From assembly GCF_053078305.1 (NCBI RefSeq), contig NZ_CP166879.1: a stretch of DNA of 64,000 nt; one strand, 5' to 3'. The translations under genes and the position numbers were made by a program. Positions within the stretch are counted from its first letter, which is position 1, and every line of letters begins with the position of its first letter. Below, in pieces: positions 835 through 55,203 of the stretch. Below the pieces are notes generated by a model. It searched no databases, was not told the DNA's origin, and saw nothing but the letters and a program-made list of their open reading frames with translations.

Positions 835-1552
835 TATGTCGCATCAGGAACGTCTGATCAGGCGGGTCAGGAAACTGCTGGAGCTGAGCCGTAATAACAG
901 CAATGCCCATGAGGCCGGGCTGGCGCTTGCAAGGGCGCAACAGCTGATGGCGAAACACGGTATCACGGAGCAGGATGCCGGACTTTCTTCGGTGCAGACC
1001 TCTTCATCACAGGGGGCACCTTCTGATGCTGAAAAAGTTCCGGCGTGGATGTTTCGTCTGGTCATGGTGGTGACACAGACATTTGGCTGCCGGGCGTATT
1101 ACGACTGGCGGGCGGTGCCCGGAGGCCGGTATCGCCGGTGTGTGACGTTTTACGGTTTCAGTGAACGTCCTCAGGTGGCGGCTTATGCGTTTGATGTTCT
1201 GTGCCGTCAGCTAAGGGAAGCAACGGATGCGTATCTTCGTACACAGAGCCGGAGACTGAAACTGAGCACCCGTCGTGCCCGGGCGGCTCAGTTTCGTGAT
1301 GGCTGGGTTCAGGGGATTCGTCAGGTGGTGATGCCATTCAGTGTGACAGAAGAGGAAAGTCGGCTGATGCGTCTCTGGATGGAGCAGCAGGATATGGTGA
1401 CGGTGGACTCCCGTGAGATGAAAGCCTGTCGCGGCGGTGACCTGGCCCGCTGGCAGGGGTATGAGGCCGGGAAAAATGCCTCACTGCATCATGGTGTGGG
1501 GGAGAGTGCCCGACAGGTGGTGCCGGGTCTGATGATACGGGAGGCGTCATGA
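824..1552 (+). CDS. DUF2786-like domain protein
   Basis: N-terminal ERLIRRVRKLLELSRNNSNAHEAGLALARAQQLMAKHGI resembles the DUF2786 helical motif (from memory). In-frame ATGs at 809, 818, 824, 827 and 836; 824 chosen because of GAGGGGG at 811-817. Confidence 0.5.
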   Translation: MMSDMSHQERLIRRVRKLLELSRNNSNAHEAGLALARAQQLMAKHGITEQDAGLSSVQTSSSQGAPSDAEKVPAWMFRLVMVVTQTFGCRAYYDWRAVPGGRYRRCVTFYGFSERPQVAAYAFDVLCRQLREATDAYLRTQSRRLKLSTRRARAAQFRDGWVQGIRQVVMPFSVTEEESRLMRLWMEQQDMVTVDSREMKACRGGDLARWQGYEAGKNASLHHGVGESARQVVPGLMIREAS

Positions 1553-2157
1553 ATAACAGCTTGTCTCAGGCAACCAACGGTCTGCTGATGCAACTGGTGA
1601 TGGACCTCAAGAGCGGCTACCTGCGTCGCTGCGAATCTCTGGGGCTGGCCCGGGAGGAAATGCAGATGCTGCAGGGACTGACCATTGAGGAAATTCATTA
1701 CCTGTCAAACTCTGAAGTGTCGGTTATCCGGCTGGACATTAATCATGAAAACCTGCTGCGTATGCTGCAGCAGGCCCGGACGGAGCAGAAACGTCTGCAG
1801 CGCATTGACCGGGCACTGGCGCTGGGAGGCTCCATTGAACTGATGGCGTTTTACTTTGGACTTTCCAGTGTGGATGTGGCAGCGCGCCGTCGCATTGCCG
1901 GTATTGATGTTCGCCCGGGACGTGGCATCACACTGAGTGATGAGGAAAGTGCAGAGCTGTGGCGTTTATGGCAGAAGAGCGGCATCACAGATGTGGAAAG
2001 TGCGGACGGACTGGATGTCATGATGCTGGCAGCTGAGCAAATGAATATCCCGCTGACGGCGGTATGGCATGCAGTGAGGGGATGGCATCAGGGAACTGCG
2101 GGGTTTAATGATGTATCGGCCAGTCGCCGGAAACTGAACCGGGAAAAAGCAGAATGA
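1549..2157 (+). CDS. ICE/pathogenicity-island replication-associated protein (DUF2857 / STY4526-YPO1902-like)
   Basis: ATGA overlap with the upstream gene. Motifs RIDRALALGGSIELMAFYFGLSSVDVAARRR and EESAELWRLWQ match my recollection of this family; unverified. Confidence 0.5.
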   Translation: MNNSLSQATNGLLMQLVMDLKSGYLRRCESLGLAREEMQMLQGLTIEEIHYLSNSEVSVIRLDINHENLLRMLQQARTEQKRLQRIDRALALGGSIELMAFYFGLSSVDVAARRRIAGIDVRPGRGITLSDEESAELWRLWQKSGITDVESADGLDVMMLAAEQMNIPLTAVWHAVRGWHQGTAGFNDVSASRRKLNREKAE

Positions 2158-2321
2158 CAAGGACAAATGACATGGCCGAAATTAACTTTCAGGTACTGCG
2201 GGAGGCTGAACAGGTGAAGCGAGAGAACCAGCCGGTTGAGGCTGGAGCGTGGAAAGATGCCGTTGAGTGGGTGCTCCAGGAGGATTGCCAGGCTGTAAAC
2301 ATTCGCATCAAAGGAGAGTGA
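2154..2321 (+). CDS. 55-aa small ORF, truncated paralogue of the C-terminus of the 2615..3013 product
   Basis: Not in the ORF track (under 60 aa). ATGA overlap with the previous stop. Its last 37 aa (EQVKRENQPVEAGAWKDAVEWVLQEDCQAVNIRIKGE) repeat the C-terminus of ORF 2615..3013. Confidence 0.35.
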   Translation: MTRTNDMAEINFQVLREAEQVKRENQPVEAGAWKDAVEWVLQEDCQAVNIRIKGE

Positions 2322-2323
2322 AC

Positions 2324-2611
2324 ATGGCTACTTTGCAGGAATTAATCGACCTGACGCCAGAACAGGAAAAAGCGTGGAAGCGCCTTGTGAAGGCTGTAAA
2401 GGATTTCAGGGCAGCCGGAGGAAAGTTTTATAGCGTCCTGGACACGCTGAGTGCATACAACGGCGAGCACGTTGCCAGCATTGATAACGATAAGGGCTAC
2501 CACACTGCAAGAGTCTATATGCCTGGCATTGATGCGCCAGGGCTAACCAGTTGGGCTGATGACTGGCACGGCATCACGCTGAAAGATGGCGTTGAAGTGG
2601 ATGATGACTAA
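2324..2611 (+). CDS. hypothetical protein (95 aa)
   Basis: ATG 2324 lies 5 nt after the AAAGGAGAG RBS embedded in the upstream gene end. The track ORF 2267..2611 extends upstream in the same frame. Confidence 0.5.
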   Translation: MATLQELIDLTPEQEKAWKRLVKAVKDFRAAGGKFYSVLDTLSAYNGEHVASIDNDKGYHTARVYMPGIDAPGLTSWADDWHGITLKDGVEVDDD

Positions 2612-2614
2612 CAC

Positions 2615-3013
2615 ATGACCACGATTACCAAAGAGCGACTGCAATGGCTGGCTAACATTTCTGGCCGCGATGACATTGACGATATAGACGGCGGTGAGAT
2701 TCGTGAGCTGGCGCTTATCGCGCTGGCATCGCTGGAAGCAGAGCCTGTGGCGTCATGCATTATTGAAGATGGGGGCATGTGTGTTGACGGGGTCGGTGAG
2801 TATGTAGGTCACTCGCTGCCTGGTGGAACGTACCAGCTATACACCGCTTCACCTGTGCCGGTAGTGCCTGAAGGACTGGTTAAAGCAGTGCGCTTTTATG
2901 AACAGGTAAAGCGTGAGAATCCACCAGTTGAAACTGGGGCATGGAAAGATGCCGTTGAGTGGGTGCTCAAAGAGGCTTGCCAGGCTGTAAATATTCGCAT
3001 CAAAGGAGAGTGA
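2615..3013 (+). CDS. hypothetical protein (132 aa)
   Basis: Track ORF, tightly packed with its neighbours. No motif recognised. Confidence 0.5.
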   Translation: MTTITKERLQWLANISGRDDIDDIDGGEIRELALIALASLEAEPVASCIIEDGGMCVDGVGEYVGHSLPGGTYQLYTASPVPVVPEGLVKAVRFYEQVKRENPPVETGAWKDAVEWVLKEACQAVNIRIKGE

Positions 3014-3015
3014 GC

Positions 3016-3507
3016 GTGCAGATTTCACCAGTCACTCTTCGTGTTGCGAAGGCGTTTATATCCAGACATCACCGACACAATAAACCTCCGGTGGTGCATA
3101 AATTCAGTATTGGTCTGAGAAATGATGCGGGTGAATTGACAGGTGTGGCGACAGCCGGCAGACCTGTTGCACGCCACTTTGACGATGGGCTGACACTGGA
3201 GGTCAATCGTACCTGTACTACTGGTGAACGTAACGCTAACAGCGCACTTTATGGCGCTGTCTGGAGGGCGGCAAAAGATATGGGCTATCGCCGTTGCATT
3301 ACATACACCAGGGCTGATGAATCCGGGGCCTCTCTTCGGGCAGATGGTTTTGTTCGTGTGAAAGAACTTCCTTCAGGAAAAAGCTGGGCAGAATCAAGTG
3401 TCGCCCTGAAGAGTACACGCGATCCGGTTGGAAGCGGTGGTGTTCCTCGTGTGCTCCGGGAAATCAGGAGAATGAGCACTACTGTCATTCACATCAAAGG
3501 GGAATGA
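3016..3507 (+). CDS. XF1762-like / putative GNAT-fold protein
   Basis: GTG start 3 nt after the upstream stop, preceded by AAAGGAGAG. RHHRHNKPPVVHKFSIGL and the overall pattern resemble phage/ICE XF1762-family proteins (from memory, unverified). Confidence 0.4.
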   Translation: MQISPVTLRVAKAFISRHHRHNKPPVVHKFSIGLRNDAGELTGVATAGRPVARHFDDGLTLEVNRTCTTGERNANSALYGAVWRAAKDMGYRRCITYTRADESGASLRADGFVRVKELPSGKSWAESSVALKSTRDPVGSGGVPRVLREIRRMSTTVIHIKGE

Positions 3508-39701: not shown

Positions 39702-39965
39702 ATGAAACCAAATATCCATCCTGAATACCGCACAGTAGTGTTCCATGACACGAGTGTGGATGAGTACTTTAAAATAGGTTCTACCATCAAAACAGAGCGC
39801 GAGATTGAACTGGACGGTGTGACGTATCCGTATGTGACGATTGACGTTTCCTCCAAATCGCATCCGTTCTATACCGGTAAACTTAGAACGGTGGCATCAG
39901 AAGGCAATGTTGCCCGCTTTACTCAGCGTTTTGGTCGTTTCGTTGGGACTCAGAAGGGGGAATGA
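39702..39965 (+). CDS. ykgM: ribosomal protein L31 type B (zinc-independent paralogue)
   Basis: [31 protein letters not shown]...[20 protein letters not shown] is near-identical to E. coli YkgM as I remember it and lacks the CxxC zinc motif. Confidence 0.9.
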
Positions 39966-40105
39966 TGAAAGTGCTTAATTCTCTGCGAACGGCCAAAGAG
40001 CGACCTCCTGACTGTCAGATAGTGAAGCGCAAAGGGCGATTGTATGTAATTTGTAAATCCAATCCTCGTTTTAAGGCTGTTCAGGGACGCAAAAAAAAGC
40101 GTTGA
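39965..40105 (+). CDS. ykgO: ribosomal protein L36 paralogue
   Basis: Not in the track (46 aa). [46 protein letters not shown]. The start overlaps the ykgM stop by 1 nt. Confidence 0.85.
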
Positions 40106-40588: not shown

Positions 40589-41683
40589 TTAGTTTTTAGT
40601 TTCCAACGGTGGTAATTTTTCAAGTGTCAGTAGTTCCTGCCCCTTTACCCGACGGCATTGGGAAGCTGCATCCTGAAGTTTTTCGCGAACGTTATTATCA
40701 TAGTCGGGATCCAATAGTTGGTATTGAAGACTATCTTTGTATGATTGAATGATATTTAGTGGACAGATAAGGCGTATATCACCGAGTGAATAAAGTTTTA
40801 CTGCCTTAAGTAAATAGTATTTTTCATCTGAAGAGCGAGCACTCTGCCAGGCTGAGTTTCTGAAATATTCAGCAGGATATGAGGTGGTCGGTATTCCATA
40901 AACATGAGGAGTCAAGTCCATGATTCCTGATATTTTAAGGAAAATAGTTAGTATTAGAGCTGGAACCATATGCACAAACGTAAAAATGAAGGCTAATATT
41001 CCAGCCATGATTCCGCCAGTCACAATTACCTGATTTAGCAAGCTGGTGCGGGTTCTTAACCTGAGGAAAACAATACAGGGAATAAGTGAAAAAATAATCA
41101 GAAGAATTGATAATACTATAACACTCAACACCTGCCAGAACTCGTTTATTCCTTCCGGGAATTCCAACGTATGAAGAAATAACTCAAGAGGAATAATATA
41201 TATGCAGGCTGCGTGGGTGAATAGCGTTGACTGTACAATATGCATGGAAAGAAACTTTTTGATCTGCTTCCACTTACCCTCTGTGCTTATCTGTCTATAA
41301 GTAATAGAGCCATTGAGACACAGAGAAAGTATAAAACTGCAAATCCAGATAATGCTTAACTGAAGTAGCACATATTGTTCAATTTCTTTTCCTGCGTTGT
41401 ACATGAGGAAAAAATAACCAAAAAATATCAGTGTTGATAATAGCGAGGTCAGAAGAACGATTTTGATGTTGTTTTCCGTCAGTTCATTCCGGAAATCACT
41501 TTCCCCTGGATAATTGGAAATATAGAATCCTGCCACTAGTGAGGGCATAAATAACGCCATGCAAAATAGGAGTACGCTGATACAAGCAAAGACCATCAGA
41601 TAACTGAACAATGATGAAAAAGAAATACTGTCAAAAAAAAGTCCTGTTTGTCCAATACGCGCAAGATGTGACCATATAAACAA
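40589..41683 (-). CDS. polytopic membrane protein (364 aa), unknown function
   Basis: About 8 hydrophobic segments plus a roughly 90-aa soluble C-terminus; AT-rich. Confidence 0.5.
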   Translation of the reverse strand: MFIWSHLARIGQTGLFFDSISFSSLFSYLMVFACISVLLFCMALFMPSLVAGFYISNYPGESDFRNELTENNIKIVLLTSLLSTLIFFGYFFLMYNAGKEIEQYVLLQLSIIWICSFILSLCLNGSITYRQISTEGKWKQIKKFLSMHIVQSTLFTHAACIYIIPLELFLHTLEFPEGINEFWQVLSVIVLSILLIIFSLIPCIVFLRLRTRTSLLNQVIVTGGIMAGILAFIFTFVHMVPALILTIFLKISGIMDLTPHVYGIPTTSYPAEYFRNSAWQSARSSDEKYYLLKAVKLYSLGDIRLICPLNIIQSYKDSLQYQLLDPDYDNNVREKLQDAASQCRRVKGQELLTLEKLPPLETKN

Positions 41684-41881
41684 TGCTACAATAGAAGTTG
41701 ACGCGATCGGTGTAAGGATTGTTAAAAACCAAGCACATAGTTTTATAAAATGTTTGTTTACTCTGTAATTTTCTATATTTTAGTGTCCATTCAAAGTTTG
41801 ACATATGATCTAGCTAATGACTCCATTTTTGGGCATTGCTTACCAACATACCTCTTATGTGTATTACTGTGAAGGAGAACG

Positions 41882-41998
41882 ATGAATAGCGACTATTCAC
41901 GTGGATCTCCACAACAACCATCAATATTCCAGCCATTATCATTCCCGGTATCCTTACCGGCATTACCTGTAGAATCGGTTATTGTTGTTGCCCTATAA
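41882..41998 (+). CDS. possible 38-aa small protein
   Basis: Strong RBS GAAGGAGAACG before the ATG. Not in the track. MNSDYSRGSPQQPSIFQPLSFPVSLPALPVESVIVVAL. Confidence 0.2.
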   Translation: MNSDYSRGSPQQPSIFQPLSFPVSLPALPVESVIVVAL

Positions 41999-42026
41999 CA
42001 CACTTTTGTGGCTATAACGTTTATAG

Positions 42027-42521
42027 CTATCGACAAAAAACCATATTAATTCTTTTGGAAAAAAGAAAATAAGGTATCCATATAACAACACCAAATATTC
42101 CACTCACTAATAATCTGATATTATCTGAATCCAGCTGTACGTCAAAAAGAATAGCCGGTAATAAAGTAAGATAGAGAGCAATAATCAGTCCTGTTGCATA
42201 ATAAGCGATCATGGCTTTTCGAGTTCCTTTTTTGCGTCTGAAAAACAACCACGTTGCATAAAGGGAAACAATGAATCCACATATCAGCAACACAAATGCC
42301 CCCATAGCGTAATAAGATAAAAAGCCAGTTTCATTGAAATAATTGAATGCAGTTATGGTAAAACTGTAAAGTTCAATAGTACTACCAATAACACCCAAGA
42401 TAAGTCCCAGAGCAGGAAGATATAATAGTCCATTAATTTTACTTAACTCTTCTCTTTCACAGGCATCACACAATCCCGACTCTTTGTTTGCTTCTGACAT
42501 TTTACATTTTATACATTCCAT
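42027..42521 (-). CDS. DUF2569-like membrane protein with an N-terminal CxxC...CxxC zinc ribbon
   Basis: CIKC...CDAC followed by four TM helices. The layout resembles YdgK/DUF2569 (from memory). Confidence 0.5.
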   Translation of the reverse strand: MECIKCKMSEANKESGLCDACEREELSKINGLLYLPALGLILGVIGSTIELYSFTITAFNYFNETGFLSYYAMGAFVLLICGFIVSLYATWLFFRRKKGTRKAMIAYYATGLIIALYLTLLPAILFDVQLDSDNIRLLVSGIFGVVIWIPYFLFSKRINMVFCR

Positions 42522-42606
42522 TTTTTATTCCATTATTCATTGCGTTACGATAATGTTTAGTTTTTTAAACATCCCCCACCACATGTATGGGGATTGTTGC
42601 AAATCT

Positions 42607-42862
42607 CACTTAGGATCTGATGGTGTTTTCTTACGGGAGTTAAATTTATCTATTAAATTAAATACTATTGTAGCTAATGTTATTGCTGTTCCTGCTATAC
42701 AACCAAAAACGATAGCTCTTTTAAACTGATTCACTGGAAAATAAAACCCATCACCTTTAAAAAATAAAAGATTGAAACCGCCCCTCCCAGAAATAGTAAC
42801 ATGACTATAGATGATAAACAGCTATAAAGGAACAATATCACATAACTATATAGTTGTTTCAT
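42607..42862 (-). pseudogene. cdiI: orphan cdiI homologue, frameshifted
   Basis: DNA and protein homology to cdiI 43100..43348 in two different frames: N-terminal MKQLYSYVILFLYSCLSSIVMLLFLGGAVSIFYFLK, C-terminal GDGFYFPVNQFKRAIVFGCIAGTAITLATIVFNLIDKFNSRKKTPSDPK. The shift is near A6 at 42759-42764. Confidence 0.65.
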
Positions 42863-43061
42863 TTTTTCTTATCCTCTGACGAACCTTTCGGTTTATTGAG
42901 TTATTGGCTCCTTCAGGTAACTCACCTTTGGCAAGTTTATCCAGTCCTGCCTGCTTCTGTTCCGAGGTGAGATTATTGGCATCAGCATACTGATTCCATG
43001 AGGAAACCGCCTGACCATAACTCACCATTCCTGATGGAAGACTGAGCGAGTTATTCTCAAC
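42846..43061 (-). pseudogene. orphan cdiA-CT remnant (VENN plus about 45 aa of CT, toxin core deleted)
   Basis: VENNSLSL...SSWNQYADANNLTSEQKQAGLDKLAKGELPEG parallels the cdiA sequence VENNALSF...TSWNKYAVDNNLTPEQTQAGLDKIAKGDMPDS, then ends after 17 unrelated codons. Confidence 0.65.
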
Positions 43062-43099
43062 AACAATCCTAACCGCAAAGGTTGGGATTGTTGTTAATC

Positions 43100-43348
43100 T
43101 CACTCAGGATCTGATGGAGGTTTTTTACGAGAATTAAACTTATCGATCAGATTAAAAACTATCGCTGCTAGTGTTATCGATGTACCTGCTATGCACCCAA
43201 ACACAATAACTCTTATCATTTGGTGGGTCGGGAAAAAAAAGAATCCTTTTGTTAGGTAAATAAATAAAGCTCCTCCCCCCATCAAAAGAAATCCACTGAT
43301 GATACAAAAGAGGCATGCATATATGAACAATACAATGTAAGCAATCAT
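43100..43348 (-). CDS. cdiI: CdiI immunity protein (82 aa, integral membrane)
   Basis: 4-nt overlap with the cdiA stop. Hydrophobic helices IVLFIYACLFCIISGFLLMGGGALFIY and VIVFGCIAGTSITLAAIVF. Confidence 0.7.
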   Translation of the reverse strand: MIAYIVLFIYACLFCIISGFLLMGGGALFIYLTKGFFFFPTHQMIRVIVFGCIAGTSITLAAIVFNLIDKFNSRKKPPSDPE

Positions 43349-46300
43349 TTCCCCTCCTCCTTCTTCGCGCTAGAAGAGAACTGATTATTACTACTTGCTT
43401 CTTTTATATATCCACCAAGAAATTCACTACCAAAAGATCCTGTCGCATCAAATATAAATCCCGGAAACTCTTTCCCAGTAACTGAGTTTACTATTCCGGG
43501 AGCATATACTCCAAATGCTCCACCCAATCCGGCCCCGGCAGCAGCCCCTCCAATAGAGCCTGTATTTGGACCATCGGTAAAGAATGCACCACCCATCGCA
43601 ATTCCGACGTTTTGTCCGACAGTTCTCCCCGGCGCAAGCATACCCGCAATGCCTGAACTGGCACTGCTTTTCCAGTCCCAGTTTTTGTTTTCATTACCTG
43701 GCTGGCTTAAATCAAACCACTGGTAACTTCCATTGGCTATCTCCGCGACGACTCCACCACTGACCATTTTACCGACCGAAGCAGCAGGCCCCAGATACCA
43801 TGCCCCGGCAATCATTACACCATCCTGATATCCATCCACGATCACTTTCGTGATATTGGTGCTGTCCGGCATATCACCTTTCGCTATCTTATCCAGTCCA
43901 GCCTGTGTTTGTTCCGGTGTCAGATTATTGTCCACCGCGTACTTGTTCCATGATGTAGCCGCAGCAGCATTGCTTTCAAAACCATCACCGAAGCTGAGCG
44001 CATTATTCTCAACCGTCGTCTTACCTGACTGTGCTCCGGCTACCGCTGAAGCTCCCGAATCTCCCACCAGACCACCGGCCAGGCCGGCAGCAACCGTTGC
44101 CAGTGTCGAGACCGTCTGCTTCTCTGTCCCGCTCAGTTCACTCACCGGCTTACCGTACATCTGTGTGGCTATCATTCCCACCACCTCGCCGGTGGCTGCG
44201 CCTGCGGCACCAGCCAGAGCATTCTTACCCTGTGCCAGAGACAGGGCTGCATTCACTACTGCATGAGCTGCCACACGTCCCGCACCGTCCGGGGTGGTCT
44301 GTTTGATAATTTCAGCAATATACGGTGCTGCACCACCTGCCAGGGCTGCACTCAGATTACCGCCGGCCAGCCCCTGTACTGCTGCCGTTGCGGCCTGTAT
44401 CGCCTGCTGGTATTTGCCTCCCGTTCCAAAACCTGAGGCCGCCATACCGTTATTGTAGGCCCGCTGCGCCACATCCTGTTCCGTGAACGGTTTTCCTGCT
44501 GCCTCAAGCTCCTCACGGGCCTGATTCAGTGCTGCCGGGTCCCGCTTCGCTTTCTCACCAGCTATCTGGCCTTCCGTTCTGGCAATATCTGCCACCTGGT
44601 TACCAATCTCACCAATGAGCTGCGCCTGCTGCAGTCGCTGCTGCTCTTTTTCCCTGTCAAAGATGGGGGACAGCGTCTGGTTTGCATGTGCTGCGTCACG
44701 GTTCAGGTCTGCCACATCCTGTTTCTGGCTCTGCGTATCCCGGATGGTGATATTCCCGGCAGACACAGCCGACTGAGTGGTGCTTTCTGCATGGCCTTCA
44801 TGATTTGCACCAACCAGCAGATTGTTGGCCATATTTCCCGCGAACTGGCCACCGATGCTGCCGCCAGTGCTGATACCCACGCTCTGGTGTTCAACTTTGT
44901 AATCAGCACGATTTTCGATATCACGGAAGCCCAGTGTACCGGTATCCAGCCGGTTTTTATCTGCCGTTGCCGTGGACGCAATCACCGCACCGTTCAGTTG
45001 CGTATGCTGTCCGGTGGTGACATCAAACCCGCCCCTGCCGGCAAAAATCCCCGTCTGCTCCTGCACACTGTCATAGTTACTGTGCATTTTATCCCGGCTG
45101 AGGCTCACACTCGCCGAACCGCTCATGGACCCGAAAGTGAAGCTGCCTCCGGCACTGGCATTCTGCTGCTTACTGTCATAACGGTCACTGTCCTGCTCAC
45201 TGGTCAGTGTCAGATGACGACCGGCATCCACTTTCACCGTTTCACCGCCGGCCTGCACGCCGGTAAGCGTGGTGTCCCGCCCGCTGATAATGGTCAGGCG
45301 GTTTCCCGCATCCACCGTGGTTTCTGTATGGGTGGTACCGTTGCCTTTTTCACTGCCCTTACCCTGGTTTGCGCTGGCTGAAACACTGATACCCCAGCCT
45401 CCGGCCCCCACACCGATACCGACACCCACACTGCCGCCACTGGATGAGTTCTTTCCTTCCAGCTTTGACGTGTTTTCTGCTGATACCAGATTCACGTCAC
45501 GGTTTGCCTGCAGCAGAACGTTGTTCCCTGCCTTTATCTGACTGCCCTGTATCGTCAGGTCACCATCCACGTCCTTCACGCCGGAGCCGGTGGCCTGAAT
45601 ACTGAGGTTATTACCTGCGGTCAGGGCGCTGTTCTTCGCCACCGTCTGCTCTGACTGCTGTTCTGATTTCGAAGACTGGCTGCCGTAAGAGAGGCTGATA
45701 CCCACGGCATTGTTATTCTCTTTCTGGTTGCCCTGTGCTTCTGCCAGTCGTCCGGCCTGCACGGCCTGAGCCCCCGAGAGCGCGGCCTTCACCCCCTGCA
45801 GGGCTTCAAGCCGGCTGTTTCCGGCAGATTTCGCCGCCTGCACGGTCTCCACCGTCGTGTTCAGGGCGCTGCCCACTGTGCCGGACAGGGCAAGCGTCAG
45901 ACCGGAGGTTTTCTGCTCCACCGAATGCGTCTGCACATGCCGGTCTGTGACGGCGCTAATGCTGACCTCCTTACCACTGAGTGCCATGTCCCTGCCGGCA
46001 ATCAGGTCAGCACTGTTGGCGCTCAGCCGGTTACCTGCCTGAAGGGAAACATCACCGTGAACACTCCCCACCGTGCTGCCTTTCTGTGTGCTGTCTGTTG
46101 CGGTGTCCGTGACTTTCAGACTCTGGCTGCCCACACTGAATCCCACACCTCCGGAGCTCATCAGCCCGGATTTTTTCTCCTGTTTCAGGTGTGTTTCACG
46201 GTTGCTTTCTGTCAGCGTGCCGATACTCAGGTCATTTCCGGCAGCCAGGGAGACACGGTTATCCCCGGCCACACTGCTGCCCGTGACGTTCAGATTATGT

Positions 46301-49300
46301 CCGGCACTGATACTGACCGTATCCCCGTTCAGTTCACTGCCCGTCATGGTCCGGCGGTCAGTGACATCATGCGTGGTTGTGGTGGTTTTCGATAACATCC
46401 CGCTGCTGCCGGTCACTTTATGGTATTCATCCAGCGAGCGGGTATTCTGTGCACCGGTCAGCGTCACGTCATGACCTGCCATCAGGGCCAGGCCTTTCTG
46501 AGCTGACAGCGATGCCGCCTGTGACGTCATATCCCGTCCGGCGGTCAGCGTGACATCACCGTTACCGGCAAGCGTGCTGCCCGTACTCTGTGTGACGCCC
46601 TGCGACAGACGATTATTTTTATCCCAGATAATATTGTCCTGCGCGGAAGTGGTCACTGTGGAAAGCGTCATATCCCTGCCCGCACTGAGTTGCGTCAGGC
46701 TGTCCTTACCCTGATTCACCACCGTTGCAGCCGTCAGATTCATATCCCGTCCGGCCTGCAGCACCAGTCTTCCCTGGTCGTTCTGCACATACACGCCGGC
46801 CACACTGTCGATACTGGTACGTTCAAAATGGTTCTGTCCGGCGTCGCGCTGTGCCGTACGGGTGGTGGTGGTCAGACTGATATCCCGTCCGGCCATCGCC
46901 AGCAGGCTGTCCGTGGCCTGCAGCAGCCCGCCGGTACTGTTAATATCCGTCCGGGCCGTCAGGCTGACATTTGCTCCCTGAATGGAGCCGGCCTGGTTGT
47001 GAATGTTTTCTGCACTGAGCTGCACGGTCTGCTTCCCGGCCAGTTTACCGCTGTTAAACAGGTCACCATCCAGCTTCATCACCATGTCCCTGCCGGCAAT
47101 CAGCGCACCGGCACTGTTCACATCACCGGGTTTTACACGGGCATACACCTGAGGTACCTGAACTGTCTGCGTGCTGCCGTCCGGCAGTGTCACCGTGGTG
47201 TTAACCAGCCAGACAATATCCCCGGTCAGTAACGCCATCTGCTCAGCCGTCAGCGCCACACCCGGTTTCAGGTTGTATTGCTTACCAAATGCAATACCCG
47301 CATCCATTAATGCCTTAAACTGCTCTTCATCACTGCCGTATCTGTCCAGGTACCGTTGCCCGGTCAGAGCGACAACCTGCTCTCGAATCAGACGCTGCTC
47401 GTAAAAACCGTCTCCCAGACGTTTGAGCATGTTATCCCCGTTCTGAGAAAACGCCTTCTGCATGTAATCACTGCCCAGCCACATCTTCTGGTTCGTAAAA
47501 CGCGGGTCCGTTTCAACCAGATATGGCACATTCACTGCCGGATTTGTTTTAAACAGACTGCTGTCCGGCAGACGGGTATCCGGCCCGGCAACATGGATAC
47601 TGCCCTGAGGTGTGCTGACTTCAAACTGCTGCCCCGGCAACAGAATGACCGGTTCACCGGCAGACACCACCGGGCGAAGCGGTATCCGGTCAGTAGCGGC
47701 TACTGCCGCATCCACATTTCCGGCCTGTCCTGTCTGTACATCCGTTCCCTGTGGCTTCAGAGGAGAAAGCGTGACCTGGCTGCCCTGAATCTGTCCGTGG
47801 CTGGTGAGCTCTCCCGGCTTCAGCGTAATGCTCTGAATTACAGTGGGCGGAGTGTACTGAGAGGTTTTCTCCCCCTGCTTATCCTTTCCTTTTTTCCTGA
47901 TACGGTAATAATACGTGGATGTTCCTGAGTCCGTAACATGCCGCTCGCCACTGACACTGACATTTTCCACGCTTCCTGACGGAATGGTCAGCAGGCCGCC
48001 TGCAACAACCTGACTCTTATCATTAAGCAGTTTGTCTGCCACAATCGTCATGCCGGCACCGGACAGAATTTTTCCCGGGTCGGAGTCTTTTACCCGGGTT
48101 TCTTCCACGGTACGGGTGTAATCATACTGCGTGAATTTATCTCTGGCGCCTTCCGGTGTATGCAGTTTTTTCAGTGAGTTACTGGAATCGTTATCCACAT
48201 AAACGCCCGGTTCACCGGCGCTCCAGCGTTTATCTGAGCCGCTGAGCTGATACTCAGTCACCTTTTCCGTGGAAACCACCACGCGCTCCGTGGTGAAATG
48301 GTCATTGACGTTATTGATTTGTCCGGCACTCAGTACCAGATATCCGGCGGCTTCAATAGTGGCACTGTGATTATTCAGTACACCGGCTTTCCCCGTGGCG
48401 GCACCATTCGCATCCAGCATGCCACCAGTATGCATATCACCTGCACTGTAAATCAGGCTGTGCGTCCGGTTATTCAGGGTCTGTACCCCTAAGTCCACAC
48501 GCTCACGCCCGGCCAGCGTCGCCGCCACGCCATTTTCTTCCAGATTATTAAATGTGGCAGCGCTGACACCAACAGCATCGCCGTAGATTCGCCCGGTACC
48601 GGAATTCGTCAGGGTGTTCGCCTGAAGATGCGTATATTTCCCGTCAATCAGCCCACGGTTCAGCAGTGTGTCCGTCACGTTAAGCCAGGTCTGCCCGGCA
48701 CTGATTTCACCTTTCTCTGTGTTTTCAAGGCGGATGCTGTTCAGGTCAAGCCGGCTGCCTGCCAGCAGGCTGCCGGTATTAGAGACATCGCCATTAACGG
48801 AAAGCGTAAGGTTTCCGTTCGCAATAGTCTGACCACTGTTGCTGAACGTTGTGTTACTTTTCAGCGTCATATCGCCCAGCGAAAGCAGTTTCCCGTCACC
48901 ACCGAGCTGACCGGCATCCACAGATACTGACTGCCCGGCCTTAACCACGCCGTCACGGTTCGAAAACGCCAGCTGACGGCCACTGACAGACAATGTCGCG
49001 CCGGAAGAGAGGACGCCGTCATTATTACTGAGCGTCCTGTCTGCCATAACCGTAAGCGCCCTGTCTGCCAGAATACTGCCCTCCTGGTTATCAAGGTCCT
49101 GCGTCGTGATGTGTATTGTCTGCGCTTCCAGCCCCTGACCGGTATTCTGCGTGTGGCGATTGATAAACTGCAGGGCGTTCAGCGTAATGGCGGAACCACT
49201 GCGAATCAGACCAGAGACGTTGTCCACAACGCCCCGTACACTGTTGAGCAACATGTCGCCCACAGACTGTATTTGTCCGTGGCTGTTCTGCAGACCTCCC

Positions 49301-52290
49301 GTATGCAGACGGAGTTCACCTTCACTGACCAGCCGGCCCCCCTCACGGTTATCCAGCGAGGTGGTGCTCAGGTCAGCTGTCGTTTTCGCCCCCACGGTCC
49401 CGCCCCGGTTATCCATTGCTCCGGTACTGACAGTCAGTTCCTGCAGGCTGTTCAGCGTACCGCGTCTGTTATCCAGCGTCTGGCCTGCGGTATTAATGCT
49501 GATACCCCTCCCCTGAATAAGACCGGACTGATTGTTCAGCGCCTGGCTGTTCCAGCCGAGCAGACCGTTTGCCACCATCTGACCGGATGTATTGTTAACC
49601 ACGCCTGCAGTCAGGGACAGAGCATCTCCCGACAAAAGCACACCGGCAGTGCTGTCCAGTGTGCCGGCATTCAGCGTCATCGGACCCTGACTGATAACCC
49701 CGCCCCGGTCACCACTATTACGGTTACTCAGTGTGTCAGCACGGAGATTCAGCGATGCACCGCTCTGTATCAGGCCGCCGGCATCGTTGATGATATCCGT
49801 CGAGGAAAGTGTCAGTGACTGCTGTGCCACCAGTCTGCCGCCCTGATTATCAAACCGTGTGACATCCAGCCTGCTGTTACCGTTGCTGACCACCGTCCCC
49901 TGCTGATTTTCCAGCACACTCAGGTGCGTATTCAGGTCCCCGCCGGCGGCAAGCGCCCCTTCCTGATTACTGACATCACCACCACTCAGCAACATATCCG
50001 TCCCGGCCTTCAGTGCGCCTTTCTGGTTCATCAGCGTACCTGACGATATCTGTAATGACGTCTGACTCCCCAGCACGCCCTGACGGTTATCGAGCGTTCC
50101 GGCGTTCAGGGTCATATCCTTCTGACCCGCCATAAATCCCTGCTGGTTATTCAGCATACCGGCCCGCACTGTCAGGGTACCGGCGCTGCTGATACCACCC
50201 CGTGTTTTCGTGTTCCGGTTACTGAGTACCCCGTCCTGTACATCCAGCGTCATGTCACTGCCGGACTGAATCAGACCATCATCAGAGACCAGTTCGCTGC
50301 CTGACACAGACAGCGTTTTCTGTGAAAGCAGTCTGCCGGACGTATTATCCAGCGCACCATCCAGCGTCACAGACAGCCCGTCAGCCACCACCGTACCCTG
50401 GTGGTTATTCAGATTCCCTGCCGAAATATCCAGCCTGCCGGCGGACTCCATTCGTCCCTCAGTATTGCTGACAGCCTGCTGTGTTTTTATCCTGCCCGTT
50501 CCGGCAGCAGCTGAAATCAGTCCGTTGTCGTTATTCAGCGCCTGTGTATTAATCAGGATGTCACGGCTGGCAAGCAGACGTCCCTGCTGGTTATCCACGG
50601 CGCCGGTTGTCCTCACCTGCAGACTGCCTGACTGCGCCGCCTGCACTTTCCCCCTGCGATTATCAAGGCTCAGTGCATCCAGACGCACCGCGCCATTTGC
50701 CGCAAACAGCCCTTCCCGGTTATCCACGCTTCCCGGCAGACTCAGCGAAAAATCCCCTGTTCCCGTCTGAGTCAGACTGCCTTTACGATTTGACAGGCTT
50801 TGTGCCGATATCTGCAGTGTGTCGGCATTTATCGTGCCACCATTATTGCTGAAGTGCCCGACAGTCCGGGCGGAAAGCGTACCGGCACTCAGTTGCGCAT
50901 TCTGTGTGGACAGATTTCCACTGGTTGCATCCAGCTCAGTATGTTGTCCCTGTATCCGGCTGTTGCTTAAATCCAGCCCCTGCCCCTTCAGTTGCATGTC
51001 CCCACCGGACAGAACCTGTCCGTGTGCCGCCAGTTCGCCGGTGGTACTGACAGTCAGGTTGCCCGCTGCCGCCAGACGTCCGTCATCTTTCACCCCGGCG
51101 GCCAGCAGACTCCGCTCACCGCCGGTCAGACGCGCTGTCTGAATCCGGGTGTTGCGACGTGATGCCACAGAGCCTGTATGGGTGAAGACACCATCACTCT
51201 GTATCTGCGTATCCTGCCCCGCATAAACAGAACCACTGTTATGCAGCTCCCGGGTTGTCGCCAGATGCACATCCGTTTTCGCACTGATACTGCCACTGTT
51301 TTCAATACGTCCGTCAGCCGTCAGGGTAACCGCCCCTGCCTGTGCACCAATATGACCGGCGTTACGAACACCCACCCCCGTTTCCGTACCGACAAGGCGA
51401 ATTTTTCCGGCATACATTCCGCCAAGACTGGCCACATCCAGTGCCATCTGAGGCTGTGAAGAGACATCACCGGTCTTTTTCTCAATCTGCCCGTGCGCGA
51501 TATCCACATTGTTACGTCCTGTGGTCACTTTCAGATCCTGCGCCCAGATACCCGCATTAATCTTCACAGACCGGGCAATGATATCGGTATAATCCGTGCG
51601 CGAGGCATCCATCCCTTTGCCCGTAACCTGAATCTCACCACGTTCAACACTGAATCCGGTCAGACTGCCGTTTTTCATCTGCGGCTGCCCCGTGGTCAGC
51701 GTGGCCCGGTTCGCATTAATAAAACCGCACCCGTCGCAACTGATGCCGGCCGGGTTCGCAATCACCACCTGCGCCTTTTTACCGGCAACCTCAACAAAAC
51801 CGTTCAACTGGCTGGGATTGCGACTGTTCACTTCATTAAGAATGATTCTGGCCTCTCCCTTAGCCAGCCACGGGTTCCCGGCCACCATGCCACCCAGTTG
51901 AGTCTGCACATTGTTATGGGCATTATTCAGAATGACGCCCTGGTTACCGACGTCGAACTGGCTGTATGCGTTATGTGAAACCCCGCCGGCAGAAGGCGTC
52001 TGAATATTCACCTGCGGAATGCCGCTGGCCGTCTGCGTAATCGTGGGCTGCTGATACCCTGGTGCGCCATGGTCTGCGACAATGCCTGCAGCACTGACAG
52101 AATGCACCATCCCCGAAGCCAGCCACAAAGAGAATGCAAGCGGCGTGACACGGCAGATACGTTGCCTGTGTGGATATCCTGTGCGGGAGGACAGTGATGT
52201 ACCGGCGCGACCGGAACGGGCAATATCTGCCACCACCATCAGCATTCCCCGGGCTTTGTTAAAAATAATGCGGTAACAATTTCTGTTCAT
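43345..52290 (-). CDS. cdiA: CdiA contact-dependent inhibition exoprotein (2981 aa)
   Basis: ESPR signal MNRNCYRIIFNKARGMLMVVADIA; TPS domain (NAYSQFDVGNQGVILNN, IANPAGISCDGCGFINA); long FHA-type repeats; VENN at 44002-44013 followed by a 218-aa CT. Confidence 0.95.
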   Translation of the reverse strand: MNRNCYRIIFNKARGMLMVVADIARSGRAGTSLSSRTGYPHRQRICRVTPLAFSLWLASGMVHSVSAAGIVADHGAPGYQQPTITQTASGIPQVNIQTPSAGGVSHNAYSQFDVGNQGVILNNAHNNVQTQLGGMVAGNPWLAKGEARIILNEVNSRNPSQLNGFVEVAGKKAQVVIANPAGISCDGCGFINANRATLTTGQPQMKNGSLTGFSVERGEIQVTGKGMDASRTDYTDIIARSVKINAGIWAQDLKVTTGRNNVDIAHGQIEKKTGDVSSQPQMALDVASLGGMYAGKIRLVGTETGVGVRNAGHIGAQAGAVTLTADGRIENSGSISAKTDVHLATTRELHNSGSVYAGQDTQIQSDGVFTHTGSVASRRNTRIQTARLTGGERSLLAAGVKDDGRLAAAGNLTVSTTGELAAHGQVLSGGDMQLKGQGLDLSNSRIQGQHTELDATSGNLSTQNAQLSAGTLSARTVGHFSNNGGTINADTLQISAQSLSNRKGSLTQTGTGDFSLSLPGSVDNREGLFAANGAVRLDALSLDNRRGKVQAAQSGSLQVRTTGAVDNQQGRLLASRDILINTQALNNDNGLISAAAGTGRIKTQQAVSNTEGRMESAGRLDISAGNLNNHQGTVVADGLSVTLDGALDNTSGRLLSQKTLSVSGSELVSDDGLIQSGSDMTLDVQDGVLSNRNTKTRGGISSAGTLTVRAGMLNNQQGFMAGQKDMTLNAGTLDNRQGVLGSQTSLQISSGTLMNQKGALKAGTDMLLSGGDVSNQEGALAAGGDLNTHLSVLENQQGTVVSNGNSRLDVTRFDNQGGRLVAQQSLTLSSTDIINDAGGLIQSGASLNLRADTLSNRNSGDRGGVISQGPMTLNAGTLDSTAGVLLSGDALSLTAGVVNNTSGQMVANGLLGWNSQALNNQSGLIQGRGISINTAGQTLDNRRGTLNSLQELTVSTGAMDNRGGTVGAKTTADLSTTSLDNREGGRLVSEGELRLHTGGLQNSHGQIQSVGDMLLNSVRGVVDNVSGLIRSGSAITLNALQFINRHTQNTGQGLEAQTIHITTQDLDNQEGSILADRALTVMADRTLSNNDGVLSSGATLSVSGRQLAFSNRDGVVKAGQSVSVDAGQLGGDGKLLSLGDMTLKSNTTFSNSGQTIANGNLTLSVNGDVSNTGSLLAGSRLDLNSIRLENTEKGEISAGQTWLNVTDTLLNRGLIDGKYTHLQANTLTNSGTGRIYGDAVGVSAATFNNLEENGVAATLAGRERVDLGVQTLNNRTHSLIYSAGDMHTGGMLDANGAATGKAGVLNNHSATIEAAGYLVLSAGQINNVNDHFTTERVVVSTEKVTEYQLSGSDKRWSAGEPGVYVDNDSSNSLKKLHTPEGARDKFTQYDYTRTVEETRVKDSDPGKILSGAGMTIVADKLLNDKSQVVAGGLLTIPSGSVENVSVSGERHVTDSGTSTYYYRIRKKGKDKQGEKTSQYTPPTVIQSITLKPGELTSHGQIQGSQVTLSPLKPQGTDVQTGQAGNVDAAVAATDRIPLRPVVSAGEPVILLPGQQFEVSTPQGSIHVAGPDTRLPDSSLFKTNPAVNVPYLVETDPRFTNQKMWLGSDYMQKAFSQNGDNMLKRLGDGFYEQRLIREQVVALTGQRYLDRYGSDEEQFKALMDAGIAFGKQYNLKPGVALTAEQMALLTGDIVWLVNTTVTLPDGSTQTVQVPQVYARVKPGDVNSAGALIAGRDMVMKLDGDLFNSGKLAGKQTVQLSAENIHNQAGSIQGANVSLTARTDINSTGGLLQATDSLLAMAGRDISLTTTTRTAQRDAGQNHFERTSIDSVAGVYVQNDQGRLVLQAGRDMNLTAATVVNQGKDSLTQLSAGRDMTLSTVTTSAQDNIIWDKNNRLSQGVTQSTGSTLAGNGDVTLTAGRDMTSQAASLSAQKGLALMAGHDVTLTGAQNTRSLDEYHKVTGSSGMLSKTTTTTHDVTDRRTMTGSELNGDTVSISAGHNLNVTGSSVAGDNRVSLAAGNDLSIGTLTESNRETHLKQEKKSGLMSSGGVGFSVGSQSLKVTDTATDSTQKGSTVGSVHGDVSLQAGNRLSANSADLIAGRDMALSGKEVSISAVTDRHVQTHSVEQKTSGLTLALSGTVGSALNTTVETVQAAKSAGNSRLEALQGVKAALSGAQAVQAGRLAEAQGNQKENNNAVGISLSYGSQSSKSEQQSEQTVAKNSALTAGNNLSIQATGSGVKDVDGDLTIQGSQIKAGNNVLLQANRDVNLVSAENTSKLEGKNSSSGGSVGVGIGVGAGGWGISVSASANQGKGSEKGNGTTHTETTVDAGNRLTIISGRDTTLTGVQAGGETVKVDAGRHLTLTSEQDSDRYDSKQQNASAGGSFTFGSMSGSASVSLSRDKMHSNYDSVQEQTGIFAGRGGFDVTTGQHTQLNGAVIASTATADKNRLDTGTLGFRDIENRADYKVEHQSVGISTGGSIGGQFAGNMANNLLVGANHEGHAESTTQSAVSAGNITIRDTQSQKQDVADLNRDAAHANQTLSPIFDREKEQQRLQQAQLIGEIGNQVADIARTEGQIAGEKAKRDPAALNQAREELEAAGKPFTEQDVAQRAYNNGMAASGFGTGGKYQQAIQAATAAVQGLAGGNLSAALAGGAAPYIAEIIKQTTPDGAGRVAAHAVVNAALSLAQGKNALAGAAGAATGEVVGMIATQMYGKPVSELSGTEKQTVSTLATVAAGLAGGLVGDSGASAVAGAQSGKTTVENNALSFGDGFESNAAAATSWNKYAVDNNLTPEQTQAGLDKIAKGDMPDSTNITKVIVDGYQDGVMIAGAWYLGPAASVGKMVSGGVVAEIANGSYQWFDLSQPGNENKNWDWKSSASSGIAGMLAPGRTVGQNVGIAMGGAFFTDGPNTGSIGGAAAGAGLGGAFGVYAPGIVNSVTGKEFPGFIFDATGSFGSEFLGGYIKEASSNNQFSSSAKKEEGK

Positions 52291-52305
52291 TCTGATAAAC
52301 CTGAC

Positions 52306-52833
52306 TTATCTCTCCGGCACATCCACAGCAAGCGGGTGCTGCACACGCCACTGGCGCGCCTCTTCACGACTGACCTGTGCACCCCGGAAATTCATCACCC
52401 GTAACCCGGTCTGCTGCCCACGGTGGTACAGCGAACGCCAGCACAGACGGGGAAAAATATCCTGCCGGACAAGACGACTCATATCCGGAGTGTGTCCAAA
52501 AGGGGCAACCCAGTCACAGACCCACATCCGGTCGCCGCTGTTCCAGTCCGACTGAGGCATGAGAATTGCCGGCTGCGTAAGATAACGCGCCTCTGCCTCC
52601 GGGCTGAGCCAGGCCTGGCTCATGAAGAAAACCGGTCGCCCCTGCTCTGTTGCCACCACATACTGTCGGTGCTTAATCACCGGCAGCTGCAGGTCCGGCA
52701 GGGTATGCAGTGGCGCATCACGATGCAGGGGGGAGTGCATCCACAACCAGACGGCCGCCCCCAGGACTTCCGCCTCATTGACCGGCTCACCGGAATACAG
52801 GGGACTCAGAACGTCATATTTCCCGTTACGCAT
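52306..52833 (-). CDS. cdiC: CdiC, HlyC/TAAT-family toxin-activating lysine acyltransferase
   Basis: LGAAVWLWMHSPLHR, WNSGDRMWVCDWVAPFG parallel the HlyC motifs LGHVSWLWASSPLHR, WTSGDRKWFIDWIAPFG. Located between cdiB and cdiA. Confidence 0.85.
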   Translation of the reverse strand: MRNGKYDVLSPLYSGEPVNEAEVLGAAVWLWMHSPLHRDAPLHTLPDLQLPVIKHRQYVVATEQGRPVFFMSQAWLSPEAEARYLTQPAILMPQSDWNSGDRMWVCDWVAPFGHTPDMSRLVRQDIFPRLCWRSLYHRGQQTGLRVMNFRGAQVSREEARQWRVQHPLAVDVPER

Positions 52834-52842
52834 GAAACTTTC

Positions 52843-54582
52843 TCAGAAATCCCGGAACAGATTAAAACCGGCTGTCACATCACTCGTCATAAAACCCGCC
52901 GGCTTTGAAAACGGACGACCGATGAAAACGTCATAATCCGTACTGAACAGTTGCCCCCTCAGCCCCACAACACCACCGGCCAGATGACGTCCCACCAGAT
53001 ATTCACTGCCGGCTCCCCCCACCTCGCCGTAATCCATTCCCAGATATAACGCCTGCTCCGGCAGTGGCGTACGCCAGGCCAGGTCGTTGCGGATATACCA
53101 GCCGTTACTGGCATTCAGCGTTCGCTCCCCGTCAAAACCACGAACCGTCCAGCGGTTACCGATGGCAAACTGTTCCTGTGGGGTCAGCGGGGTATTGCTC
53201 AGCTGGCGCTGATACCGGAAGGAATAACTGAAGGGCTGCTCTGCCAGTGTAAAGGGCAGATTAAAGGATGCATTCATCTGCAGGATCTTACTGAGCGCCG
53301 TTGCCTCACCGAAGATTTCCTCCGGTGCCGGCTGTGCACCAAACCAGCGGGTTCCCCGTTGCCAGCTGACACCAGCATCCAGTGTGGCCTGAGAAATATA
53401 ATGACGGTGCTGCAGCCCAAGTCGCCAGGCCGCTGTCTGCCGGCGCTGCACCTGGATTTCCGTATCATTAATGTAGTTACGCGACCTGCGGGCCTGAACA
53501 TCGTAAGTCAGCACCGTTTTCTGCGTCCCGTTACGATGCAGTACCCGGCTCAGCTGCATGCCCAGATTCTGACTCTCGCCACTGTACTGGTAATCCTCAA
53601 CCGCACCAGCTACCGTCTGATGGTAATCGTAATCACTGGCGGTGACGGAAAACTGCCAGTAACCGAAAGGCACAGAGTAATGGGCCGTGTAGTTTTTACT
53701 GCCCTTACCCCCGTAATGTGGAAAATTATGGGTGGCAGAAACATACAGCAGGTCACTCAGGGAAAAAGGATTATCCAGAGAAAATGTTATACCACCGAGA
53801 TAACGCCCTGTGCTGCGGGTACCTGAATCATCAAGCGAAAACCCCAGTCGCCAGTATTTATCCTGTTTACGGGTAATAAGAATATCACTTTCCCCTGGCT
53901 GCTCACCGGGCACAATTTCCATATCAGCCTGCACACCCGGCAGTCGTTGCATATTCTCCAGCCCCTGCTCAATGTCCCGTAAATCCAGCAGAGAACCTTC
54001 GTGTGCCGGGAATGAGGAATACAACTGAATATAGTCATCACTGTCCGGTGTCAGACGCACATGTCGCACAACACCGGGAATAACAACCAGCCGGAGGATA
54101 CCGCTTTTTAAATCCTGCGAAGGTGCCAGAACACGGGTGGTGACATAACCATGATCGACAAGACGGTTCTGCAATGTACTCATCAGCAGATTAATTCCTT
54201 TCGCCCCCAGGCAATGCCCGACCGCCCCGTTGGCGATTTTTTGTAAAGGCAGCCAGTGTGGTAACGCATCAGCCCCCTTCAGTTCCGTCTGTTTAATCTG
54301 AAAACAGGGCGTTTCAACAGGAAAATTAATCTTATGGGCAAAAGAGCCAGGTGCAGAAAGGCGAACATCAGGGGCTGAAGGCGTCAGTTGTTGCTCAAGG
54401 GCTTCCTGACGCTGCTGCTGAATGATAAATGTATCCTCTCCACTACGCCGGATATCCGCGGCCTGAAGAGATAAAGGCGATAATAAAACAGACATCAGTG
54501 TCAGTGATAAAATGAACGGACAGCGCCGGAATAAGCTTTGTTCCTCAGCCCTCTCGTTCCTGCAACATAATTTTCCAGCCAA
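52843..54582 (-). CDS. cdiB: CdiB TpsB-family (ShlB/FhaC-type) outer-membrane transporter
   Basis: Signal peptide ...[15 protein letters not shown]-type N-terminus, beta-barrel ending in ...GFNLFRDF. Alternative start at M30 (54495). Confidence 0.9.
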
Positions 54583-55203
54583 ACGAAAAACCTTTTATGC
54601 ATGCTGTGTCAACAATCACCAGCCTCCTGACGATGTCTGCCGCCATTTTGGCAATAACACACTACCGCCCTTCCGGAATTCCCCGTATCAACCGGTACCA
54701 GAATGCTGAGTAACCAGTCAGCCAAATCAGGCTGGTTTAATTTTGCTCATTATAGAATAATGATCTGAAAAATATCAATATAACAGGTGTATCGATCGTA
54801 ATTGCAGATGCTTGCAGATCTTTATTCCAGTATATGTTGTCAAGCTGGAATATTTAGAAATATATATCCATGACTAATGTGGAAATACAGAAAATTATTC
54901 CAGTGAATGCTTTTTATACGGTCTCCTGGCACAGAAAATGGTGATTTTTGATTTGAATCATTGAAATCAGTTCTGCTAATAAGAAGACATGCTGAAAAGC
55001 CGATTTTCAGGGGGTGATTGAAGGGATTGTGAGTTTTTCCTTCGGCTTTTAACGTAACTTCCTGTTTTCCTGATATTCCACGGCAAGATTAATTTTTAGC
55101 GGAGCAGAATGAATAAAATCTTCATCTGGTGTTTTTGCTGCGCGTAAATGCAGGTGTAACTGTGGATGTTATCCACTGAAGAGCTGCTGATGAGGATGAA
55201 GAC

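Follow-up and report, generated by a model that had tools for sequence, protein, structure and literature searches.

The orphan module and its two lesions

We analysed a 64,000-nucleotide stretch of DNA (NCBI RefSeq assembly GCF_053078305.1, contig NZ_CP166879.1; hereafter the window) whose minus strand bears a contact-dependent growth inhibition (CDI) locus, in which the C-terminal toxin region (CT) of cdiA, counted from a VENN motif, is followed by cdiI and then by a second, orphan CT and cdiI. Judged from its sequence, the window is of Escherichia coli origin, and positions 42400-43400 are 100% identical to five complete E. coli genomes, including that of the O22:H8 strain 154. The orphan module is the subject of this study. 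Its intact counterpart was located by megablast in other E. coli and is called here the X-type cassette, a label of the present analysis; the loci compared are cited by number (L001 and so on). The module comprises the following features:

42903..43061, minus strand: 5' part of the orphan cdiA-CT remnant, VENN and 49 codons, which by translation and by alignment to the intact CTs of L001 and L006 correspond to the N-terminus of an X-type group 3 ionophore CT
42859..42902, minus strand: 3' tail of the orphan cdiA-CT remnant, the last codons of the toxin gene, out of frame
42606..42862, minus strand: orphan cdiI pseudogene, with a frame-0 part at 42862-42731 (43 aa and stop) and a -1-frame part running to the stop at 42608-42606
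42758..42764, minus strand: run of six T (T6) and an A, T_TTT_TTA, in phase (Y33 F34 L35; codon phase from the ATG at 42862), the site of a 1-nt deletion

A preliminary description, made from the letters of the window, had proposed that a decayed orphan module lies here, composed of a toxin-deleted CT remnant and a frameshifted orphan cdiI, and comparison with intact relatives exposes both lesions. The second VENN-prefixed fragment is indeed present downstream of cdiI, its VENN codons lying at 43061-43050 on the minus strand. The parallel with the cdiA-linked CT, put earlier at about 45 aa, extends over the 49 codons after VENN (31/53 aa identical, 70.6% DNA identity), and the same stretch is ~98% DNA-identical to intact X-type CTs in other E. 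coli. Beyond it the frame reads unrelated residues until a stop at 42846. In a global alignment to L001 the part missing relative to intact CTs amounts to 454 nt, i.e. 151 codons and 1 nt, out of frame; the toxin deletion suspected at first sight is thus real, while its size had been overestimated at about 170 aa. The junction lies at 42903|42902, and the alignment of L014, a contig discussed below, to the window begins exactly at 42902. The deletion starts after '...ELPEGAN' and ends 13 codons short of the toxin stop; the glycine-zipper domain is lost in its entirety, along with the remainder of the entry region. What follows is the final 43 nt of the toxin gene, left in the wrong frame, and therefore the mechanical open reading frame (ORF) 43103-42846 extends 16 nt past the cdiI ATG. 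Microhomology at the junction does not exceed 1 nt. A deletion between direct repeats (CAATA occurs near both ends) was also considered and was rejected, as the junction sequence does not fit it. The only upstream start for the VENN fragment is a GTG that overlaps the stop of the preceding cdiI, ~45 nt from VENN.

The orphan cdiI carries the second lesion. From the ATG at 42862, 35 N-terminal residues are CdiI-like and the C-terminal 50 follow in the -1 frame, the switch falling at the T6 run (A6 on the plus strand, 42759-42764), where every intact homologue compared has seven T (T7). As had been predicted for a 1-nt indel at this tract, repair of T6 to T7 restores a full-length protein, of 85 aa, which is identical to WP_073488148.1 at 84/85 positions. 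Coincidence had been entertained as an explanation of the two-frame similarity; with ~99% DNA identity to homologues over 357 nt and a single 1-nt gap, it is not a chance resemblance. The downstream frame was earlier said to have no usable start codon, which is essentially right: just a GTG (42734) is available, and no purine-rich Shine-Dalgarno-like sequence precedes it. The repaired CdiI has two hydrophobic segments, approximately residues 5-33 and 50-70 (Kyte-Doolittle), and in the hydropathy profile codon 35, where the frame shifts, falls at the close of the first segment, ahead of the loop. The genomic copy provides only a 43-aa stub and a 3' piece that lacks a usable start, and RefSeq annotates no gene here in the complete genomes that carry T6.

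The intact X-type cassette consists of a VENN-CT of 218 aa and a cdiI that encodes 85 aa, the toxin stop and the cdiI ATG overlapping (ATGA); a DUF2569 gene comes next in most loci. It is found on full-length cdiA in L001, L006 and L007, and as an intact orphan in L002, L008 and L011, on plasmids and chromosomes of Shiga toxin-producing E. coli. When the active CT, the remnant and the two CdiI proteins were scanned against Pfam and NCBIfam, no family came out above threshold, and the only matches were weak ones to Gly-zipper_Omp; hence the family was assigned through the literature and accession identity. Halvorsen et al. 2024 (PMC11630599) enter WP_073488148.1, annotated in L006 and L008, in their S1 Table as the CdiI of strain PLATE1_D7, within group 3 (AcrB-dependent). 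That study distinguishes six groups of E. coli CDI ionophore toxins that have a glycine zipper in common, and describes their immunity proteins as very hydrophobic two-helix hairpins of 72-100 aa that protect against the cognate toxin only (PMC11630599). The link came via this accession; WP_001562757, WP_000812110 and short peptide strings were not found in the supplements of the same paper. The X-type CT is 64% identical to that of the group 3 strain 94-3024, and a glycine zipper (GxxxGxxxG) is visible in it, with a weak match to Pfam Gly-zipper_Omp (E=0.001-0.004) that falls below the cut-off. By its sequence, then, the orphan is a decayed member of the group 3 CDI ionophore toxin/immunity family.

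Ntox25 was tried as the family of the X-type toxin, prompted by a RefSeq name, 'polymorphic toxin type 25', and was set aside, the match being confined to the first 48 aa of a chimeric ORF in L004 and L005. The full name of that ORF, 'polymorphic toxin type 25 domain-containing protein' (L004 3175-3696; L005 3175-3696), is misleading in this respect.

Inheritance of the T6 allele and the order of events

To survey the tract we used a 79-nt probe around it, free of single-nucleotide polymorphisms (SNPs), which matched 38 complete E. coli genomes. Of these carriers of the cdiI, 11 have T6, all without an annotated gene at that place; in the other 28 records the tract is T7 and a gene is annotated, and in 27 of these 28 the toxin spacing is consistent with an undeleted toxin. 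A look-up of the active CdiI, a protein indexed in 897 collection blocks, led to ten further places with the architecture of the window (nine NCBI assemblies and one ENA metagenome), and in all ten T6 occurs together with the deletion junction, mismatches numbering no more than one in 578 nt. A base-by-base comparison of 14 loci shows perfect linkage of T6 to a C/T SNP 17 nt upstream (V28A): 8/8 T6 loci have C and 6/6 T7 loci have T. Linkage of this kind argues for one mutational origin and against recurrent slippage or phase variation.

These observations bear directly on whether the lesion exists in the organism at all. Single-base miscalls in homopolymers of 6-7 nt are common on some platforms, and the lesion amounts to exactly one base in a T tract, as expected if the orphan cdiI were truly T7 and had been misread or misassembled. 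But the same T6 was obtained in 11 complete genomes from different countries and laboratories and in 10/10 other assemblies, including the metagenome; it goes with a neighbouring SNP that none of the compared T7 alleles has, and recurs in four architectures; and T7 was called readily in the 28 other records. We accordingly give next to no credence to an error. The preliminary description had left the choice between genuine decay and a homopolymer sequencing error unsettled: the former stands, on the strength of the 11 complete genomes, the 10/10 assemblies, the linked SNP and the four architectures, and the latter falls. Comparison with homologous loci, the check proposed there, reveals T6 as a shared allele and not a read error.

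The length change of a mononucleotide tract would equally suit a phase-variable switch, in which slipped-strand mispairing toggles the orphan immunity between T7 (ON) and T6 (OFF). However, tract length follows the flanking haplotype, with no revertants or recurrences among the 14 loci, and all 15 genomes and assemblies of the window type have T6. A tract of 6-7 nt is also shorter than typical contingency tracts. Such a switch is, in our view, most improbable.

The T6 haplotype is distributed over four architectures: 1) That of the window, with the 454-nt deletion. 2) The L004/L005 type, seen in 6 complete genomes, where an Ntox25 domain contributes its first 48 aa and the X-type toxin its last 124 aa to a fused ORF, and a GAG->TAG nonsense mutation lies five codons ahead of the natural stop. 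3) L013, an ENA metagenome contig with a full-length toxin and pre-VENN sequence, whose toxin bears a TGG->TAG nonsense mutation and is frameshifted by A5->A4. 4) The Logan contig L014, which is 99.0% identical to the window over 3186 nt, from 42902 through the DUF2569 gene, a 395-aa gene and an L31 paralogue, and has T6 together with the last 109 toxin codons intact. As L014 combines the downstream context of the window with T6 and lacks the deletion, the frameshift predates the 454-nt deletion in this lineage. The T6-linked toxin is damaged differently in each of the three architectures that show its 5' part (the window, the L004/L005 type and L013). The most economical reading is that the immunity gene broke once and that the toxin gene was then destroyed independently several times.

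The cdi locus is flanked by conjugal-transfer genes and therefore sits on an integrative conjugative element (ICE). Taken together, the feature very probably represents, as far as sequence can tell, genuine inherited decay of an orphan CDI module that is a passenger behind an ICE-borne cdiB-cdiC-cdiA-cdiI locus. Its ancestor was an X-type cassette composed of the VENN-CT (218 aa), cdiI (85 aa) and the DUF2569 gene, a form still intact in other E. coli. Loss of one T from the T7 tract of cdiI reduced a predicted two-helix protein to the 43-aa stub and an unstartable 3' part, and in the lineage of the window a later illegitimate deletion of 454 nt took away the entire glycine-zipper ionophore domain and some of the entry region. 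Neither gene is likely to yield a working product now, and the remnant presumably persists only by hitch-hiking with the neighbouring locus and the ICE. Loss of immunity to a rare type of toxin may have been nearly neutral, after which the unprotected orphan toxin would have been free, or mildly selected, to be destroyed; selection of this kind is conceivable because an unprotected membrane toxin gene would be a liability.

Whether the T6 allele is wholly dead or could still be read through deserves separate consideration, since the loss of one T from TAT TTT TTT AAA gives TAT TTT TTA AAG. This creates U_UUU_UUA (42764-42758), a heptamer of the canonical form X_XXY_YYZ that stands in phase, and the shift needed to restore the protein is precisely -1. 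Slippage on it would give a full-length, near-native F35L CdiI, the trans-frame peptide reading …IFYFLKGDGFYFPVNQFK…, so that T6 might be a down-tuned allele supplying useful immunity; the allele has also persisted through four architectures with its 3' frame still open. If membrane immunity proteins are active at low copy number, a leaky T6 might even confer partial protection against X-type ionophores, which we consider a slim prospect; were it true, it would explain why the allele survived, with the 3' frame open, through four rearrangements.

Several lines of evidence run counter to such recoding. In E. coli, efficient -1 shifting is a property of V_VV.A_AA.R, H_HH.U_UU.Y and a small number of further motifs; ZZN codons of the 'heterogeneous' kind, UUA among them, shift less well, and in the absence of stimulators the best motifs reach just 2-10 times a background of ~0.05% (Sharma et al. 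2014, PMC4066793). U_UUU_UUA belongs to the low-efficiency class for E. coli. There is no significant downstream structure (111 nt from the site, z = -0.31 against shuffles), and the sole Shine-Dalgarno-like sequence, GGAGG, lies ~18 nt upstream, outside the 10-14 nt at which such a sequence is stimulatory. The other homologues (66 matches, most of 79-87 aa) are read as single uninterrupted proteins, so the shift is not conserved; T6 is limited to one haplotype. Further, the T6-linked toxin is independently damaged wherever its 5' part is visible, which fits a dead module. Useful recoding is hence improbable, with a somewhat better chance than a sequencing error or a switch, and the heptamer is a leftover of the one-T loss that arose incidentally.

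Some points weigh against the proposed history of a dead passenger whose immunity gene failed first. The immunity-first order draws, at the level of sequence, on one incomplete contig (L014) and on parsimony across the architectures, and recombination could have moved the T6 allele between contexts instead. The 3' part of cdiI bears no further disabling mutation in any T6 allele seen, and the divergence is too low for this to weigh much. Finally, single-base deletions in two test proteins were suppressed at 1-10% in aggregate in E. coli (Springstein et al. 2024, PMC10861913), and therefore a trace of full-length product is possible.

The host locus, its active pair and the module boundary

The order of genes on the minus strand is cdiB, HlyC-family acyltransferase, cdiA, cdiI and orphan fragment, i.e. 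a cdiBCAI arrangement, with the following features around the orphan module:

52843..54582, minus strand: presumed cdiB, outer-membrane transporter of the two-partner secretion pair and head of the operon; a 579-aa ORF directly upstream of the acyltransferase gene and cdiA
52306..52833, minus strand: cdiC-like HlyC-family acyltransferase gene between cdiB and cdiA (Pfam HlyC PF02794, E=6e-31, 107 bits)
43345..52290, minus strand: full-length cdiA, an ORF of 2981 aa with VENN at 44013-44002
43100..43348, minus strand: cdiA-linked cdiI, presumed active; by translation a small, hydrophobic protein of 82 aa, WP_001562757.1 in strain 154
43043..43107, minus strand: strong hairpin spanning the end of the active cdiI through the orphan VENN (minimum free energy -33.6 kcal/mol)
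42027..42521, minus strand: DUF2569 membrane-protein gene (Pfam DUF2569, E=9e-34), within the VENN-to-VENN unit of the X-type module

The ORF at 52843..54582 is one that we take to be cdiB from its position, and the placement of an acyltransferase gene between cdiB and cdiA presumably matches the arrangement of lipidated 'class IV' CdiA systems. The 2981-aa CdiA product, identical in other assemblies, matches Pfam TPS, ESPR, Fil_haemagg and PT-VENN there. Its CT (43348-44013, minus strand) measures 222 aa counted from VENN and is a glycine-zipper, ionophore-type toxin; the zipper motif is visible in the sequence, which has no match in Pfam. Its identity to 94-3024, the representative of group 3 in the literature, is 54.5%, and its identity to the X-type CT is 72.5%; the active CdiI shares 58% identity with the CdiI of the intact X-type cassette. 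The active CT is mosaic in structure, with ~96% identity to a Y-type orphan CT (L011) over residues 1-80, ~90% identity to the X-type over residues 80-185, and ~40 unique residues at the C-terminus. Read from the sequences, this pattern suggests that intragenic recombination has taken place between ionophores of group 3.

Of the five complete genomes sharing the region, three (STEC1585, OkiPb01714 and OkiPb01696) lack cdiB, cdiC and cdiA as far as ~18 nt past the V codon of VENN, the absent stretch corresponding to window ~43996-55000 (loci L009 and L010 compared). The 'active' CT/cdiI pair of the window is a mere orphan in these genomes, and therefore the ICE-borne locus is decaying at several levels.

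Given two adjacent homologous modules in direct orientation, the remnant might be thought to be kept as a recombination cassette, in which exchange through the CT 5' parts or the cdiI 3' ends reshuffles toxin and immunity. Exchange of modules at VENN is documented (PMC3150448), and the active CT is itself a mosaic of Y-type (aa 1-80) and X-type (aa 80-185) sequence. Against this, no stretch of exact identity shared by the modules exceeds 12 nt. For efficient exchange in E. coli, RecA reportedly needs ~23-27 bp of perfect identity. DNA identity between the modules is 70.6% in the CT 5' parts and 76.4% in the cdiI 3' halves with flank, exchange would yield no more than a hybrid cdiI or a cdiA joined to a dead toxin stub, and the 15 genomes and assemblies of the window type are identical in architecture, with no crossover derivative. 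We therefore hold a retained cassette to be very unlikely, and the earlier suggestion that the conserved 3' ends of the two cdiI copies provide a recombination substrate is weak, given the 12-nt longest match and 3' halves that are ~76% identical. An inherited, decaying passenger remains the reading that we prefer.

The boundary between the active cdiI and the orphan VENN is marked by the hairpin at 43043..43107 (z = -7.97; 0/200 shuffles equally stable). The core of the hairpin is the inverted repeat AACAACAATCCCAACC / GGTTAGGATTGTTGTT, the 3' arm of which leads directly into GAGAATAAC (ENN); as a 16-nt inverted repeat it reads AACAACAATCCCAACC / GGTT(A/G)GGATTGTTGTT and adjoins GAGAATAA (ENN). 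At L011 4440-4560 this repeat recurs with another loop, after a related 82-aa cdiI and before the VENN of a different orphan toxin, and the ORF translation of L013 implies it there too. When searched elsewhere in E. coli, the junction hairpin was recovered only in the same five genomes and in one 80% match, which led to L011. There is no T-tail at 43043-43107, and an Rfam scan of 41500-44200, hairpin included, returned no match. A promoter and terminator scan gave fewer promoter-like sites than in shuffles and no terminator within the module. The hairpin could be a module-boundary, transcript-end or recombination element.

A DUF2569 gene lies 3' of the X-type cdiI in the window and in L001, L002, L004, L011 and L013, and homology stops just ahead of the next VVENN in L001, L002, L004 and L011. 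Its product may be a second immunity protein or an accessory protein. Directly after it, 40589-41683 on the minus strand encodes a large multi-pass hydrophobic protein (395 aa in RefSeq) that has no match in Pfam or NCBIfam; this ORF occupies the place where other loci hold further orphan modules. Some 2 kb downstream of the orphan region the ICE also carries paralogues of the ribosomal proteins L31 and L36 (type B, ykgM/ykgO-like) at 39702-40105 on the plus strand, so annotated in strain 154.

Significance and comparison with known systems

A module of this kind is already known, from the orphans of Poole et al. 2011 and the family of Halvorsen et al. 2024, and is not a new system. Two aspects only are mildly unexpected: the immunity gene decayed before the toxin gene, and a formally perfect slippery heptamer arose by accident. 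The results carry little weight for new biology and have some practical uses: 1) Two unannotated pseudogenes, 42606-42862 and 42859-43061, can be labelled. 2) The adjacent active toxin can, by sequence, be assigned to the published group 3 ionophore family. 3) The module offers a small worked example of orphan decay, in which the immunity-first order runs counter to the expectation that immunity genes outlive toxins as a 'collected' repertoire. 4) Population comparison alone can tell a real homopolymer frameshift from a sequencing error.

When set beside programmed -1 sites such as those of dnaX and IS911/IS3, the window has, like these, an in-phase X_XXY_YYZ heptamer exactly where a -1 shift restores the protein; unlike them, it has neither a stimulatory hairpin or pseudoknot nor a correctly spaced Shine-Dalgarno sequence, and the shift is not conserved. 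The likeness to the group 3 pair of PLATE1_D7 is far closer, in that the repaired orphan CdiI is identical to its CdiI at 84/85 positions and the intact relatives combine a 218-aa glycine-zipper CT with an 85-aa CdiI of two hydrophobic segments. The cdiA-linked pair of the window belongs, by sequence, to the same family, given the identity of its CT (72.5%) and CdiI (58%) to the X-type. The orphan itself differs from the PLATE1_D7 pair in lacking the ionophore domain and in having its cdiI split.

Orphan cdiA-CT/cdiI modules were described in EC93 (o1) and EC869 (o1-o11), along with VENN-to-VENN homology units, VENN-less fragments and disrupted orphans; those put to the test worked as toxin/immunity pairs, and expression of orphan cdiI was observed (Poole et al. 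2011, PMC3150448). The module studied here resembles these in its position and orientation behind cdiI, in the occurrence of its cassette on full-length cdiA in other strains, in homology units bounded by successive VENN motifs, and in beginning at VENN with no translation-initiation signals, followed by a small cdiI. It is set apart from them by the 454-nt out-of-frame deletion and the 1-nt frameshift in its two genes, lesions that, by sequence, would inactivate both.

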